From the NCBI GenBank assembly GCA_963807405.1, contig CAWEBU010000006.1:615733-679732 (forward strand): a DNA stretch of 64,000 nucleotides, read 5' to 3'. Numbering within the stretch: position 1 is the first letter of the stretch; every line of letters starts with the position of its first letter. The notes under the pieces were generated by a model, which ran no database searches, had not been told where the DNA came from, and worked only from the letters and a program-made list of their open reading frames with translations. A program made the translations under genes and the position numbers. Shown piece after piece: positions 14,160-53,274 of the stretch. The DNA comes from an uncultured Acidobacteriota bacterium (lineage in GTDB: Bacteria > Acidobacteriota > Vicinamibacteria > Vicinamibacterales > UBA2999).

Positions 14160-14933
14160 TCAGCGGCGGCGCCGCTTGAAGGCGAGCCCGGACCAGGTGG
14201 CGTCGACGCTGCAGACCTTGAAGTCCACGAAGCCGGCCATCAGGCCGGCCTCGCGCACGTCGTTGCCGTTGATGCGCGCCGCCTGCCGCGACACGCCTTT
14301 CGGCCAGGCGAGCCAGACGACCTGCGTGGTGACGAGCGTCGACAGGCGCGCGAGTGCCGAGTCGAGCTGAGCGCGCGAGGTGACGAACCACACGAAGCGG
14401 TCCGCCGTAGTGGTCGCCCCGGCCGTCAGGCGCGCGCCCGTTGGCAGCGCGCCGAGCAGCGTGGCGAACCCGTCAGGCGCCCCCACCACCGCGACCCGCT
14501 CGCCGGCGGCCAGTCCGAGTTTCTGCGCCAGTGTGCGGGCCGCGAACAGCCGATCTGGCGGCACGATCGGCGTGCCCCGGACGGCCTTGAGGGCGCGGGG
14601 CAGTGCCGACCCGATCCGGCCCCAGGTGGCGTAGACGGCATCCGGCAACAGCGCCCGCATCCGTGCGACGGCCTCGGGATCGCCGCCGGCAAAGACCAGC
14701 GGCCGATGCCTGGTGGCCGGACTCGAGGCCAGCGCCACGCCCACCTCGCGCCCGTGCGAGGGGCGGCGTGAGAGATCGACCACAAAGCAATCGGGCGCCC
14801 CGGCACGCAGCGCTCGCATGAGCGGCGTGCCGGTGACGCCCGGAAGATAGACGACGTCGTGCCCCAGGGCTGCGAGCGCGACGACACGCTCACGCGCGTC
14901 GTCGGCGTCCCAGTGCACCAGGTGGACGCGCAT
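14160..14933 (-). CDS. conserved hypothetical protein
   Basis: 257-aa ORF with coding-like composition. The C-terminal half (...VWLAWPKGVSRQ...VDFKVCSVDATWSGLAF) resembles DUF3052-type proteins (weak recollection). Confidence 0.55.
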   Translation of the reverse strand: MRVHLVHWDADDARERVVALAALGHDVVYLPGVTGTPLMRALRAGAPDCFVVDLSRRPSHGREVGVALASSPATRHRPLVFAGGDPEAVARMRALLPDAVYATWGRIGSALPRALKAVRGTPIVPPDRLFAARTLAQKLGLAAGERVAVVGAPDGFATLLGALPTGARLTAGATTTADRFVWFVTSRAQLDSALARLSTLVTTQVVWLAWPKGVSRQAARINGNDVREAGLMAGFVDFKVCSVDATWSGLAFKRRRR

Positions 14934-14942
14934 CGCGTCCGC

Positions 14943-15365
14943 TCAGGACAGCGTGGTCTTCAGCGTGATCTCGGTCGCGGCCAGGGCGCGCGAGATGATG
15001 CAGCCGGACTTGGCCTGCTCGGCGTGGGACTGGAACGTGGCGGCGTCGACGCCCGGCACTTTGGCCGTGCAATCGAGGTCGATGCGGGTGATCCTGAAGC
15101 CGCCGTCGTCCTTGCCGAGGTGCACGCTCGCCGTCGTGGCCACCGAGGTGGCCGGAAAACCGGCCTTGGCCAGCGCGTTGGCCAGCGCCATCGAGAAGCA
15201 GGCGGCATTGGCCGCGCCCAGCAGCTCTTCCGGGTTCGCCCCGGTCTCGTCACCGAACCGTGTGGCAAACGAGTAGGCGCCTTCGAACGCGCCGCTGCCC
15301 AGGGCTACCTTCCCGGTGCCCTCCATCAGATCGCCCTTCCACTCCGCTGTCGCCGTGCGTGCCAT
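14943..15365 (-). CDS. osmC: OsmC-family peroxiredoxin
   Basis: GANPEELLGAANAACFSMAL plus a second Cys in AKSGCIISRAL. The 140-aa length is typical of OsmC. Confidence 0.9.
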   Translation of the reverse strand: MARTATAEWKGDLMEGTGKVALGSGAFEGAYSFATRFGDETGANPEELLGAANAACFSMALANALAKAGFPATSVATTASVHLGKDDGGFRITRIDLDCTAKVPGVDAATFQSHAEQAKSGCIISRALAATEITLKTTLS

Positions 15366-15460
15366 TGCTGCTCCCTTGATGCGTGCGCCAGTACACGAAA
15401 GCCGCGTGGCGCGTCCAAAGGGTTAGCGTAGCACGCGGCCAGTGCCGCGGCGGGGCGTGG

Positions 15461-49210: not shown

Positions 49211-50410
49211 ATGAGCGTGTGGACCCCGGCCCGTCGTTGTGAGCGCATGCAGCCGTCGATTTTGCGCGAGATCCTGAAGGTCGCCGAGCGTCCCGGCATC
49301 CGGTCGATGGCCGGCGGACTGCCGTCGCCGGAGACCTTCCCGGTCGAGGCGATTGCCGCCGCCTGCGACGCCGTGCTGACGCGGCAGCCCAAGGCCGCGC
49401 TGCAGTACGCCGCCAGCGAGGGCTTTGCGCCGCTGCGCGAGTGGGTGGCAGCGTCTTTGTCACGCCCCGGCTATCAGGTGGGCGCCGACGAGGTCCTCAT
49501 CACGACCGGCTCGCAGCAGGGCCTCGACCTCGTGGGCAAGGTCTTCATCGACGCCGGCGCGCCGGTGGCGGTCGAGGCACCGACGTATCTGGGCGCCCTG
49601 CAGGCGTTCGTCCCCTACGAGCCGGCCTTCGTGCCGCTCGACGGCGACGACGAAGGCCCGACGGCCGCGTCCCTGGCGGCGCTGCCGACGCGGGCGCCGG
49701 GAACGCGCTTCGCCTACCTGCTGCCGAACTTCCAGAACCCGACCGGCAGCCAGATCTCGCACGACCGCCGGGACGCGATCGTCGCGGCGGCGCAGTCGGC
49801 GGGGGTGCCGATCATCGAGGACAACCCCTACGGCGACCTGTGGTTCGACGAGGCGCCGCCGCCGTCGATGACGTCGCGCTGGCCGGAGGGCGTCATCTAT
49901 CTCGGCTCGTTCTCGAAGGTGCTGACGCCGGGGTTCAGGCTGGGGTTCCTGGTGGCCCCGCGCGACCTCTATCCGCGGTTCCTGGCGGCCAAGCAGGCCG
50001 CCGACCTCCACACGCCCGGCTTCAACCAGCGGGTGATCTTCGAGGTCATCAAGGACGGCTTCCTCGACCGGCACGTGCCGACCATCCGCGAGCGCTACCG
50101 TCAGCAGCGCGATGCCATGGCCAAAGCCCTGGCCGCCCACATGCCCCCGGGCACGACCTACCAGGTGCCACGCGGCGGCATGTTCTTCTGGTTACGGCTG
50201 CCTGAAGGCTTCGACACCCTGCCGCTGCTGCAGAAGGCGATCGACGCCGGGGTGGCGTTCGTGCCGGGCGCGCCGTTCTACACCGCCGCGCCGGACGTGC
50301 GAACGATGCGGCTCAGCTTCGTGACGCTCTCGACCGACGAGATCGCGGACGCGGTGGCGACGCTCGGGAAGGTGCTGGCGGAAGCCGGTGCGCCGGCGTC
50401 GGTCGGCTAG
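49211..50410 (+). CDS. class-I PLP aminotransferase (2-aminoadipate/aromatic aminotransferase-like)
   Basis: MQPSILREILKVAERPGIRSMAGGLPSPETFP, LLPNFQNPTG and GSFSKVLTPGFRLGF (PLP lysine). Confidence 0.85.
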   Translation: MSVWTPARRCERMQPSILREILKVAERPGIRSMAGGLPSPETFPVEAIAAACDAVLTRQPKAALQYAASEGFAPLREWVAASLSRPGYQVGADEVLITTGSQQGLDLVGKVFIDAGAPVAVEAPTYLGALQAFVPYEPAFVPLDGDDEGPTAASLAALPTRAPGTRFAYLLPNFQNPTGSQISHDRRDAIVAAAQSAGVPIIEDNPYGDLWFDEAPPPSMTSRWPEGVIYLGSFSKVLTPGFRLGFLVAPRDLYPRFLAAKQAADLHTPGFNQRVIFEVIKDGFLDRHVPTIRERYRQQRDAMAKALAAHMPPGTTYQVPRGGMFFWLRLPEGFDTLPLLQKAIDAGVAFVPGAPFYTAAPDVRTMRLSFVTLSTDEIADAVATLGKVLAEAGAPASVG

Positions 50411-51309
50411 GGCGCCAGACGCAGGCGCGGGCGGACCTTCTCGAACGCCTTCATCACCTCGTCCACGGCCCGCGGGGTGCGGCTCATCTTCGGATAGACC
50501 CAGCCGGTCTCGCGGATGAGCGGGCGGCCTTCGATGCGCGCGCAGTAGAGGTGGCCGCTGGCGACGTCGCGCGCCACCGACTGGTAGGAGACGATCGTGA
50601 TCCCGAGGCCGTGACGGACCAGCGCCTTCAGGATCTCGACGTTCTCCGTTTCCATCACGATGCGCGGCTCGATGCCCGCCGAGGCGAAGAACTCGTCGAC
50701 GACGCGGCGCGTGTTCGAGCCCGACTCGAACAGCACGAACGGCTGCGCCGCGAGATCCTGGGCATTGACCTTCCGCTTCTTGGTGAGCGGATGCTTGGCC
50801 GAGGTCACGACCAGCAGTTCCTCCTGCAGCACCGGCACCGCCACCATGTCGGCGTCCTTGATCGGCAGCGTCAGCATCGCGATGTCGCCGCTGCCGGCCC
50901 GCAGATGCTGGACGCAGCGCTCGGCGCTGTCGCTCATGATCTTGACGTCGATGCCGGGGTGCTGGCGGGTCACTTCTGACAGCAGCGTCGGGAAGACGTA
51001 GAGACAGACCGTCATGCCGCCCAGGATGCGGACCGTGCCGCGCAGCGTCTCCTGGCTGTCGCTGATGAGGGTGACGGTGTCGGTCAGATCCTGGAAGACG
51101 CGGTGGCTGAGCTGGAGGAGCGCCTCGCCGGCCGGGGTGATGCGGATGCGCCGGCCGATGCGCAGGAAGACCGGCGTCTTCAGCTCGTCCTCGAGGAGCA
51201 GGATCTGGCGGCTGATCGCCGACTGCGACACGTGCAGCTTGTGGCCGGCGGCAGTGAACGAGCCGGTCTCGGCGATGGCGCGGATGATTTCGAGCTGGCG
51301 TAGGTCCAA
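50407..51309 (-). CDS. LysR-family transcriptional regulator
   Basis: N-terminal HTH (LRQLEIIRAIAETGSFTAAGHKLHVSQSAISRQILLLEDEL) and a LysR substrate-binding domain. Confidence 0.9.
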   Translation of the reverse strand: MDLRQLEIIRAIAETGSFTAAGHKLHVSQSAISRQILLLEDELKTPVFLRIGRRIRITPAGEALLQLSHRVFQDLTDTVTLISDSQETLRGTVRILGGMTVCLYVFPTLLSEVTRQHPGIDVKIMSDSAERCVQHLRAGSGDIAMLTLPIKDADMVAVPVLQEELLVVTSAKHPLTKKRKVNAQDLAAQPFVLFESGSNTRRVVDEFFASAGIEPRIVMETENVEILKALVRHGLGITIVSYQSVARDVASGHLYCARIEGRPLIRETGWVYPKMSRTPRAVDEVMKAFEKVRPRLRLAP

Positions 51310-51439
51310 CGGGTGACTCCCGCTGGCGAGTATACATGCAGCCGCGAGATGGACCTAGCGAAGTCCGCCGGAAGAAGTTATGTGACGGAGTCGACGGGAA
51401 CGGGCGTCCCGGCCCGGAATGGACCGGGACGCCGCTCCG

Positions 51440-52051
51440 TCACTTCTTCTTGATGAGGGAACAGACGCCCAATGCGCCGCTCGGATCGAGCGCATCGGCC
51501 GCCATATCGATGTGCCGCACCACTCCGGCGTCGTCCACGACGAACGTCACGCGGCGAGCGGTCCCGGAATTCTCGTCGAGGATGCCGAGGGTCCGGGCGT
51601 AGGTGCGCTTGGTGTCGGAGAGCAGCGGGAAGTCGAGTCCCATCTGATCGCGAAATGCCTTGTTGGCCCAGGTGGAGTCGACGCTGACGCCGAAGACGGC
51701 GGCGTTGTTGGCGCCGAACTGCGCGTAGTTGTCCCGGTACCGGGACATCTCGGTCGTTCAACCGGGGGAGAAGGCCGCCGGGAAGAACGCAATCACGACC
51801 GACTGCCGGCCCTTGAACGAGGCCAGGGTCGCCGTCTTCGAGACGGGACGGCCGCCATCGGGCGCCGGCTCGAGGTAGGGCAGCGTGAAGTCGGGCATCG
51901 GCTGGCCCACTTGCACCAGCGGGGGCGGCGGGGGCGGCGGCGGGGTCGGCGCCGCGGTCGTGCCCGGCGTCTGTGCCAGGGCGCCCGGGACGGGCGCCGC
52001 GGCCAGCACGGCGAACACGCTGACCCAGAGGTACAGCGAGCGTGATGTCAT
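51440..52051 (-). CDS. exported PrxQ/BCP-type peroxiredoxin with in-frame TGA (51758-51760) at the peroxidatic Cys position: selenocysteine candidate
   Basis: Track ORFs 51758-52402 and 51440-51748 share one frame. The joined product reads ...VVIAFFPAAFSPG[TGA]TTEMSRYRDNYAQFGANNAAVFGVSVDS...FPLLSD... The start at ATG 52051 gives a signal peptide and a PPPPPPPP linker. Confidence 0.7.
51727..51750 (-). promoter_or_regulatory. SECIS-like hairpin downstream of the in-frame UGA
   Basis: mRNA: UGA-acgacc-gAGAU-GUCCCG-GUAC-CGGGAC-AACU. Perfect 6-bp stem, extendable with one A·A mismatch. The apical loop starts 17 nt after the UGA and begins with GU. Confidence 0.5.
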
Positions 52052-52058
52052 GGCGTGA

Positions 52059-52958
52059 CTATACCGCGGAGCCGCGTCGGCTGCGGGGCGCCGGGCGGGC
52101 GGCGTCGGCGCGGACGCGGGCCACCGCCTCCTTGAGGTAGTGCTCGTCGAGCTCGATGCCGATGCCGTGCACCCCGAGACGGGCACAGGCGACCATCGTC
52201 GAGCCGAGGCCCATGAACGGGTCGGCCACGGTGAGGTCCGGCCCGAGCCCGTGCAGGCGCAGGCAGTACTCGGGCAGGCGCGGCGGGAAGGTGGCCGGAT
52301 GCGGCCGATCCTTCTCGCGATTCTGGATCGTCTCGTAGGGCACGAACCAGGTGTTGCCGCGGCACCGACGGCCGCCCGAGGCGCCACGCCAGCGGGCGAC
52401 ATTCGACGGGTCCTGATACTTCACGCCGAGCGCCAGGCGGTCCAGCCGGGTGGTGCCTTGTGGGGTGAAGTGGAACAGGAACTCGTGGCAGTCGTTGAGA
52501 AAACGCGCCGAGTTGATCGGCTTGTAGTGGCCGACCGCCAGGTCGTCCGCCAGGCCGGCGCGGCTGCCGGCGGCGTCGCGCTCGATGGCGATCGACTTCA
52601 CCCAGTGGATGATGTTCTGGAGGTGCAGGTGCGGCCGCACCGCCTGAGCCACGTCGAGCGCCGTCCACGGGTCGGTGGGTTTGGCCCCGACGTTCAGGAA
52701 CAGCGACCCCTGGGCGGTCAGCGTCCGGGCCACGGCGGCCACCCAGCGGCCGGTCCACTCCAGGTATTCGTGGCGGGGCTGGCCGTCGTCGTAGGTGCGG
52801 TAGCGGATGCCGAGGTTGTAGGGTGGCGACGTGACGACCGCATCGATCCGGTTCTCCGGCAGCGCCGGCAGGACATCGAGGCAGTCGCCGAGGTAGAACG
52901 TGATGGTCGACCGGCCAGTCTGGACGGTCTCGTAGGGGCGGGGAACGCGGGAGGGCAC
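52059..52958 (-). CDS. DNA methyltransferase, N4/N6 beta-class (PF01555-like), no cognate endonuclease seen
   Basis: Motif IV DAVVTSPPYNL lies N-terminal to motif I ADPFMGLGST. The start is probably GTG 52958, because the longer 53165 start would overlap the upstream small gene. Confidence 0.85.
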   Translation of the reverse strand: MPSRVPRPYETVQTGRSTITFYLGDCLDVLPALPENRIDAVVTSPPYNLGIRYRTYDDGQPRHEYLEWTGRWVAAVARTLTAQGSLFLNVGAKPTDPWTALDVAQAVRPHLHLQNIIHWVKSIAIERDAAGSRAGLADDLAVGHYKPINSARFLNDCHEFLFHFTPQGTTRLDRLALGVKYQDPSNVARWRGASGGRRCRGNTWFVPYETIQNREKDRPHPATFPPRLPEYCLRLHGLGPDLTVADPFMGLGSTMVACARLGVHGIGIELDEHYLKEAVARVRADAARPAPRSRRGSAV

Positions 52959-53025: not shown

Positions 53026-53247
53026 CTACGACGCGCGCATGGCGACGACCGGCGGGGGATAGCCCTCGGCCGTCCGGCTGTCGCGGAGCGCGGAAATCGT
53101 GTGATTCTGGCGGTGAGAGGCGCTCGCGCACTGCGGCCCCTTCTCCTCGACGTAGACCACTTCACGCGTGCTTCCCACGTCGCGGTAGCGACCGATGACG
53201 CAGCCGCAAGGCATGGTGCCGAACCCGAGGAGCTTCACGACACTCAT
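53026..53247 (-). CDS. small Cys-containing hypothetical protein (73 aa)
   Basis: ATG 53247 follows GGGAGAG. Translation begins MSVVKLLGFGTMPCGCVIGRYRDVGSTREVVYVEEKGPQCASASH... A sigma54-type promoter lies just upstream. Confidence 0.45.
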   Translation of the reverse strand: MSVVKLLGFGTMPCGCVIGRYRDVGSTREVVYVEEKGPQCASASHRQNHTISALRDSRTAEGYPPPVVAMRAS

Positions 53248-53274
53248 AATCACGCTCTCCCGCAATCGCCGCTC

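Follow-up and report, generated by a model that had tools for sequence, protein, structure and literature searches.

An in-frame UGA followed by an RNA hairpin very probably encodes the catalytic selenocysteine of a predicted exported peroxiredoxin in Acidobacteriota

An in-frame stop codon at the active site of a peroxiredoxin gene

Why should a peroxiredoxin gene carry an in-frame stop codon exactly where its catalytic cysteine belongs, with a palindromic RNA hairpin a few nucleotides (nt) behind it? The gene in question lies on the minus strand, at positions 51440-52051, of a 64-kb stretch of DNA from an uncultured Acidobacteriota bacterium of the order Vicinamibacterales (contig CAWEBU010000006.1 of assembly GCA_963807405.1), and this whole stretch of 64,000 nucleotides is hereafter called the window. 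A first-pass annotation made from the letters alone had proposed that the gene is a selenoprotein candidate that was split in two by the calling of open reading frames (ORFs). Our comparison with related loci suggests that it is very probably a genuine bacterial selenoprotein gene, in which the UGA and the RNA hairpin downstream of it encode a catalytic selenocysteine (Sec). We put the probability at about 0.9 that the locus is a single gene for a 203-residue exported peroxiredoxin precursor with Sec as its peroxidatic residue.

The frame that runs from ATG 52051 to 51440 on the minus strand has 203 codons and one internal stop only, the TGA at 51758-51760. Its joined translation reads VVIAFFPAAFSPG up to the stop and TTEMSRYRDNYAQFG after it. 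When the coordinates and translation were rechecked, the two ORFs called on this strand, 51758-52402 and 51440-51748, were confirmed to be in a common frame, and the sequence between them was found to consist, as described earlier, of the TGA and three codons (ACG ACC GAG). The choice of ATG 52051 as the real start also held up, in that both the start and the resulting length match those of full-length homologs of approximately 195 to 205 amino acids (aa). The features of the gene that bear on its reading are as follows.

51440-52051, minus strand: complete coding sequence (CDS) of the predicted Sec peroxiredoxin precursor, 203 codons, with the putative UGA-Sec as codon 98 (sequence and translation)
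51758-51760, minus strand: in-frame UGA, the proposed Sec codon, at the peroxidatic cysteine (Cp) position (alignment and translation; relatives are split between TGA and Cys at this codon)
51509-51910, minus strand: AhpC/TSA (thioredoxin-fold peroxiredoxin) domain, residues 48-181 (Pfam limits), with the PxxxSxxU motif (P91, S95, U98) and the conserved Arg R167
51461-51463, minus strand: codon for Cys197, candidate resolving Cys and the sole other Cys of the mature protein
51440-51442, minus strand: terminal stop TGA (read from the sequence)

With Cys put in place of the stop, residues 48-181 matched the Pfam AhpC-TSA family (PF00578) with an E value of 1.5e-34 and 119 bits, compared with a cutoff of 26. 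In HMMER alignments, the TGA landed on the peroxidatic Cys of 2ywn and 2cx3 (FTQVCTKE and FSPVCTKE, respectively), which bears out its earlier placement at exactly this residue, and hundreds of full-length homologs carry Cys where the window gene has TGA. P91, S95, and R167 were invariant among 27 aligned family members, with position 98 being either U or C, and the catalytic residues P91, S95, U98, and R167 are all intact in the window protein. C197 was likewise invariant in the 27 members, and it is also kept in the Sec forms.

TGA and Cys forms of the gene are orthologs

To see how the TGA is distributed, one genome per GTDB species was scanned for the degenerate pattern FFPAAFSPG-TGA-T. 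The pattern was found in 38 species-representative genomes, all belonging to Acidobacteriota and mostly to Vicinamibacterales/Vicinamibacteraceae, with a few from Solibacteraceae and Terriglobia. A profile-guided metagenome scan yielded 80 further loci. Taken together, the loci had TGA as the Cp codon in 52 cases and TGC or TGT in 59 (56 and 3, respectively).

Apart from L009, in which a later stop leaves 69 codons after the TGA, all TGA loci that extend to the gene end continue in frame past the TGA for about 105 codons, ending in ...GxCSLLKKK. Among close relatives, the uncorrected ratio of nonsynonymous to synonymous differences (pN/pS) was 0.2-0.4 over the 102 codons after the UGA, similar to that over the 50 codons before it. 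Purifying selection there resembles that upstream, and the region after the UGA is therefore translated.

The same gene order, i.e., SpdSyn/TPR protein, small Cys/His-rich ORF, N4/N6 DNA methyltransferase, peroxiredoxin, and LysR regulator, was found around TGA and TGC loci, and this common neighborhood indicates that the TGA and Cys forms are orthologs. A neighbor-joining tree sorted the Vicinamibacterales-type TGA forms into one clade, whose sister groups are syntenic Cys clades, and placed two more distant TGA clades, one Solibacteraceae-like and the other Terriglobia-like, elsewhere.

The hairpin after the UGA resembles a bacterial SECIS

A bacterial selenocysteine insertion sequence (SECIS), as sought by bSECISearch-type criteria, is a stem-loop shortly after the UGA that has its apical loop 16-37 nt downstream and a G in that loop. 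The window gene has the following candidate structures at this place.

51730-51747, minus strand: apical SECIS-like hairpin, nt 14-31 counted from the U of the UGA, with a 7-bp stem UGUCCCG/CGGGACA and the tetraloop GUAC at 51737-51740 (fold and RNAalifold)
51716-51760, minus strand: extended lower stem, UGAAC with GUUC(G) plus internal pairs (minimum free energy [MFE] fold of the window sequence; weakly supported)

The 7-bp helix begins 10 nt past the UGA. Within it lies the palindrome GUCCCG-GUAC-CGGGAC that had been pointed out before, and its coordinates proved correct (51746-51731, 11 nt past the UGA, with the loop starting at 17 nt), so that both the loop distance of 17 nt and the G in the loop agree with the criteria above. 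A 66-nt stretch folded at -26.1 kcal/mol (z = -2.44), and only 3 of 200 shuffled sequences were as stable. The lower stem is not claimed to be functional, because several relatives fold otherwise and the Cys forms also conserve its 3' arm (codons Q-F).

In the fdhF SECIS of E. coli, a minimal upper stem-loop of 17 nt is located 11 nt after the UGA, and the GU of its loop binds SelB. Folded identically, this upper stem-loop occupied nt 15-31, compared with nt 14-31 in the window gene, and its tetraloop was GGUC at nt 22-25, compared with GUAC at nt 21-24, with a G followed by a U in both. The near match bears out the bacterial SECIS geometry that the first-pass annotation had suggested. On the other hand, the two sequences are unrelated, and the window stem lacks a bulged U, its 7 bp forming a perfect helix.

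The hairpin is conserved among the Sec forms

For the 51 nt that start at the Cp codon, the mean MFE was -16.2 kcal/mol among the TGA forms (43 distinct sequences) and -9.0 kcal/mol among the Cys forms (56 distinct sequences; Mann-Whitney p = 1e-13), the GC contents being equal. The hairpin is specific to the TGA forms and absent from the Cys orthologs. Orthologs that all carried Cys and had no hairpin had been named beforehand as the pattern that would speak against a selenoprotein; what we found instead was TGA forms with the hairpin and Cys clades without it.

RNAalifold, when applied to 30 distinct sequences of the main Sec clade, returned a 7-bp helix at nt 14-20/25-31, consisting of exactly those seven pairs, and 99% of the helix cells in this clade were paired. 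The same program found no consensus structure in the mixed alignment of all 38 sequences; the distant clades and one subclade have hairpins that are shifted by 1-4 nt. Compensatory changes were seen at two pairs, covering eight cells: C18:G27 was changed to U:A in seven sequences on several branches, and G15:C30 was changed to C:G in one sequence, via coupled Met-to-Leu and Asp-to-Glu replacements. None of 500 shuffles attained the resulting score. The loop bases G21 and U22 were invariant in the Sec clade. A subclade with the peptide MQRYRE has a different hairpin at nt 18-24/32-38, in which the pair C24:G32 of one member is U24:A32 in others, and the stems of the two distant Sec clades differ again, at a roughly similar distance from the UGA.

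The structure constrains codon usage in the Sec forms. Arg+6 was encoded by CGG in 34 of 34 sequences and Asp+9 by GAC in 35 of 35, while the choices between TCC and TCT at +5 and between CGG and CGA at +8 occurred in matching 29:7 counts. The mean synonymous codon entropy was 0.51 for the hairpin codons, compared with 0.98 elsewhere. The hairpin also imposes the peptide SRYRD on the Sec forms at a place where the Cys forms vary, e.g., AKYQE.

The codons on either side of the UGA were biased as well. The one before it (window 51761-51763, minus strand) was GGU in 32 of the 36 Sec forms and GGC in 45 of the 52 Cys forms; the one after it (window 51755-51757, minus strand) was ACG in 35 of 36 Sec forms, but in only 25 of 52 Cys forms. 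This bias may reflect a local context requirement for recoding.

The N-terminus suggests export

Upstream of the catalytic domain, the translation shows two further features.

51974-52051, minus strand: signal-peptide-like N-terminus MTSRSLYLWVSVFAVLAAAPVPGALA (from the translation: basic residue, hydrophobic core, A-L-A, then Q)
51920-51973, minus strand: Pro-rich linker QTPGTTAAPTPPPPPPPP from the signal peptide to the catalytic domain (translation; PPPPP kept in Sec and Cys forms)

The n-h-c layout with its AxA site is visible by eye, and the cleavage context, in which MTSRSLYLWVSVFAVLAAAPVPGALA is followed by QT, resembles that of a Sec-type signal peptide, with neither a twin-arginine motif nor a lipobox Cys. 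Equivalent N-termini were found in homologs, and the signal-like N-terminus and the poly-Pro linker are common to the Sec and Cys forms. Both had been noticed in the window gene at the outset, and their recurrence in full-length homologs supports that observation. The peroxiredoxin may be exported via the general secretory (Sec) translocon.

The linker includes eight successive proline codons (PPPPPPPP) at 51920-51943 on the minus strand, some 55 codons ahead of the UGA, and PPPPP or a longer run is conserved family-wide. Proline codon runs of such length normally need elongation factor P (EF-P) for efficient translation.

A model for the expression and catalysis of the enzyme

We propose that the UGA at codon 98 would be recoded as Sec during translation, with the hairpin 10-11 nt downstream (7-bp stem and GUAC loop with its conserved G and U) acting as a bacterial SECIS. 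It would recruit SelB-GTP-Sec-tRNA(Sec) to the ribosome, if the recoding depends on SelB as we presume. The signal peptide would then guide the protein, still unfolded, through the Sec translocon, with cleavage after ALA. In the cell envelope, the U98 selenolate (of PxxxSxxU, activated by R167) may reduce peroxides, being converted to a selenenic acid that the invariant Cys197 probably resolves as a selenenylsulfide, and a putative periplasmic thioredoxin-like reductant would recycle the enzyme.

Evidence against a selenoprotein and rival explanations

Several observations weigh against this model. The selA, selB, selD, and tRNA-Sec genes were not found in the 64-kb window by tblastn with E. 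coli SelA, SelB, and SelD, by ARAGORN, or with Rfam, and when the 119 related loci (1-8 kb each) were searched likewise, the only such gene was one fused SelD. These searches covered the window and the related loci, and the presumed presence of a Sec machinery in this genome is the main residual uncertainty. We found nothing in the literature on Sec decoding specific to Vicinamibacterales. As for the hairpin, no Rfam family matched its region, with a permissive scan of 51600-51850 giving matches at chance level only, and the bulged U of the E. coli SECIS has no counterpart in the stem. The covariation concerns two base pairs only, most of the stem being invariant, and this invariance is partly confounded with the conservation of the SRYRD peptide. 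Finally, the identity of the residue as Sec is drawn from sequence comparison, and export from a reading of the N-terminus by eye.

A near-cognate or suppressor tRNA may, in principle, insert one of the standard amino acids, such as Trp, Cys, or Gly, at the UGA, in which case the hairpin would be a stimulator of read-through that has nothing to do with selenium. This would fit the window, in which no Sec machinery was found, as well as the W that one pipeline put at the TGA of an ortholog, and the conservation downstream needs read-through only, not Sec specifically. However, a UGA on a redox-active Cys is the signature of Sec/Cys exchange, and a Trp or Gly there would inactivate the peroxiredoxin. 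Moreover, the hairpin geometry and the loop starting with GU fit a SelB-type SECIS, UGA is a normal stop in the window, and Sec-peroxiredoxins and the use of Sec are documented in bacteria, including Acidobacteria, and we therefore regard such read-through as very unlikely. We give just as little weight to a version in which recoding occurs without canonical SelA, SelB, and tRNA-Sec, the hairpin driving a lineage-specific read-through or insertion at the catalytic codon in Vicinamibacterales carriers that might lack SelB.

If the UGA simply terminated translation, the gene would yield an N-terminal fragment of 97 residues and, by re-initiation at ATG 51748, a C-terminal fragment of 102 residues. 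That ATG does lie four codons past the UGA, and gene callers give 102-aa products in at least 120 clusters, but neither fragment would contain the peroxidatic residue, and the C-terminal one would be without the signal peptide borne by the N-terminal half. The Met is a conserved peroxiredoxin residue in Cys forms too (CTxEM) rather than a dedicated start, and its codon in TGA orthologs may be CTG or CTC (L030, L048, L051, and L055) or TTT (L011 and L015), which are hardly starts. With the frame always kept across the UGA, a split gene is a highly improbable reading. The least credible one is a defect peculiar to the window genome, i.e., a pseudogene, a nonsense mutation, or a sequencing or assembly error, even though a one-base change suffices to turn TGC or TGT into TGA and Cys orthologs do exist. 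The identical TGA recurred in 52 loci that are independent of one another, coming from different assemblies and species, the downstream frame was intact under purifying selection in all loci reaching the gene end but L009, and the TGA strictly co-occurred with the specific hairpin and the codon usage constraints. The error or nonsense mutation that the first-pass annotation had kept as its alternative is excluded by the occurrence of the TGA in the 38 species genomes and in metagenome contigs, with the frame behind it intact and constrained.

A general change of the genetic code was also considered. About half of the window ORFs with high GC content at third codon positions, including the peroxiredoxin gene, terminate in TGA, and when the window was scanned for further TGAs flanked on either side by coding signal, no second convincing candidate appeared. 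Because UGA is an ordinary stop in the window and no second in-frame case is present, genome-wide reassignment of UGA is not the explanation. The TGA at 14943-14945 (minus strand) was tried as a second selenoprotein and rejected, since the ORFs 14943-15422 and 14160-14942 look like ordinary neighboring genes in the same frame, the downstream one having its own Met within its first few codons.

The Sec-decoding trait and selenoproteins have been documented in Acidobacteria (PMC1794560, PMC12013277). When SelA of Solibacter usitatus (PMC1794560 supplement) was used as a query, the best 120 matches were all Bryobacterales-like, with at least 72% identity. SelA is thus abundant in Bryobacterales-type Acidobacteria, which has no bearing on Vicinamibacterales. 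The fused SelD mentioned above is encoded on a metagenome contig (L072, 228-2495, minus strand) as a 755-aa fusion of a pyridine-nucleotide-disulfide oxidoreductase with SelD (Cys form), approximately 0.5 kb from a Cys-form peroxiredoxin gene.

A new clade of the Sec-peroxiredoxin family

The first-pass annotation had assigned the protein to PrxQ/BCP, a label that is only approximate. The nearest solved relatives are of the BCP type; no subfamily model reached its cutoff, and the CxxxxC motif is missing. None of the NCBIfam models for AhpC, BCP, PrxQ, and PrxU attained its cutoff on the window protein, with NF006960 scoring 61.7 bits (cutoff, 140), NF053650 56.5 bits (cutoff, 260), and the PrxU equivalog model NF040737 61.8 bits (cutoff, 270). 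The Cp residue opens the sequence UTTEMS, which has no Cys at +5, so the resolving Cys of the BCP-type CxxxxC is absent. The best solved matches were archaeal BCPs, with mycobacterial AhpE close behind (E = 1e-20 to 1e-18). These BCP/PrxQ and AhpE structures (2ywn, 2cx3, and 3hjp; M. tuberculosis AhpE, 1xvw/4x0x) share the active-site context FxxxCTxE with the window protein. However, all of them are Cys enzymes that are not exported, whereas the window family has a C-terminal Cys and no CxxxxC.

Sec-peroxiredoxins are an established family of bacterial selenoproteins with a T/SxxU active site (PMC1794560, PMC5029168, PMC13188914), which counted 12 proteins in 2006 (PMC1794560) and 91 proteins in 78 organisms in 2016 (PMC5029168). 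Earlier surveys of the family stressed anaerobes (Deltaproteobacteria and Clostridia), and conversions of Cys to Sec have repeatedly been inferred in this literature. The window protein resembles the family in its PF00578 domain, in the UGA at the peroxidatic Cys of PxxxS/TxxU, in having Cys orthologs, and in the SECIS-like element directly downstream within the CDS, but it belongs to a separate large clade of Acidobacteriota, mainly of Vicinamibacterales, in which a signal peptide is followed by a poly-Pro linker. PrxU of Eubacterium acidaminophilum (Sohling et al. 2001; NF040737) was experimentally shown to be a Sec peroxiredoxin and has the same fold and catalytic Sec position; it differs in being cytoplasmic, while the window protein has an export signal and falls below the NF040737 cutoff. 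The window family is a new large clade of the already known Sec-peroxiredoxin family and not a PrxU equivalog. We did not find a description of an exported Sec-peroxiredoxin clade of Acidobacteriota in the searchable literature.

The peroxiredoxin PprX of Caulobacter is a Cys enzyme of the cell envelope that is reduced through electron transporters of the DsbD/ScsB type. Such envelope peroxiredoxins are similar to the predicted enzyme in that they act outside the cytoplasm and need a periplasmic thiol reductant.

This apparently undescribed clade would add 38 species-level genomes and hundreds of metagenome clusters from abundant soil bacteria to the Sec-peroxiredoxins, and it would imply that selenium supports peroxide defense in the envelope of soil Acidobacteriota. 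The occurrence of Sec and Cys orthologs in one syntenic slot makes them a natural pair in which to study how Cys and Sec are exchanged and how a SECIS arises within a CDS. The understanding of Sec decoding itself is unchanged, the case being mechanistically unsurprising.

Public annotation cuts the gene at the UGA

The first-pass annotation had expected automated pipelines to break the gene in two, and public data agree. Out of 317 matches in public protein sets, at least 120 clusters at 90% identity (P0241-P0360) are C-terminal fragments of 102-106 aa, which are labeled "peroxiredoxin" or "redoxin domain-containing protein." One of them, P0241, located on a 3.73-Mb contig, is 100% identical to the window product. 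The closest full-length database protein (P0001) has W at the Cp position, and its DNA (L003) has TGA. This ortholog (L003, 384-986, JGI 3300060663) was translated in a single piece of 200 aa, with the TGA read as Trp, and the public pipeline apparently applied a TGA=Trp genetic code to the short contig. Truncation at the proposed Sec codon is systematic, and the annotation of soil microbes and the counts of their selenoproteomes are therefore biased low.

Neighboring features

A second strong hairpin is located just behind the gene.

51403-51433, minus strand: strong hairpin 6 nt past the peroxiredoxin stop, with 10-bp perfect arms at 51433-51424 and 51412-51403 (-41.9 kcal/mol for 75 nt)

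It is probably a transcript-end structure. A scan of it for a consensus terminator gave nothing, and it has no T-tract; in relatives, this position is occupied by strong hairpins whose sequences are unrelated. The sequence GUCCCGG/CCGGGAC that it shares with the SECIS-like stem is not conserved in relatives, and we treated the sharing as a coincidence.

Immediately downstream of the peroxiredoxin gene, 50407-51309 (minus strand) encodes a LysR regulator, whose second-best NCBIfam match was NF040786 (172 bits; cutoff, 250). Its identification as a "selenium metabolism-associated LysR" was rejected, since the score is below the cutoff and the gene is equally conserved beside Cys-form peroxiredoxin genes. 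On the upstream side, 52059 to approximately 52985 (minus strand) encodes an orphan DNA methyltransferase of the N4/N6 type, with matches to adenine methyltransferases and CcrM that are weak and below the cutoff. Its stop lies 8 nt before the peroxiredoxin start, and its place between the small ORF and the peroxiredoxin gene is conserved order-wide. That small ORF (53026-53265, minus strand) encodes a Cys/His-rich protein of 79 aa (...LPCGCVIGRYRDVGSTREV.YVEEKG..C...H..NH...) with no NCBIfam match, and it is found upstream of the peroxiredoxin gene in nearly all related loci, of the Sec and Cys forms alike.

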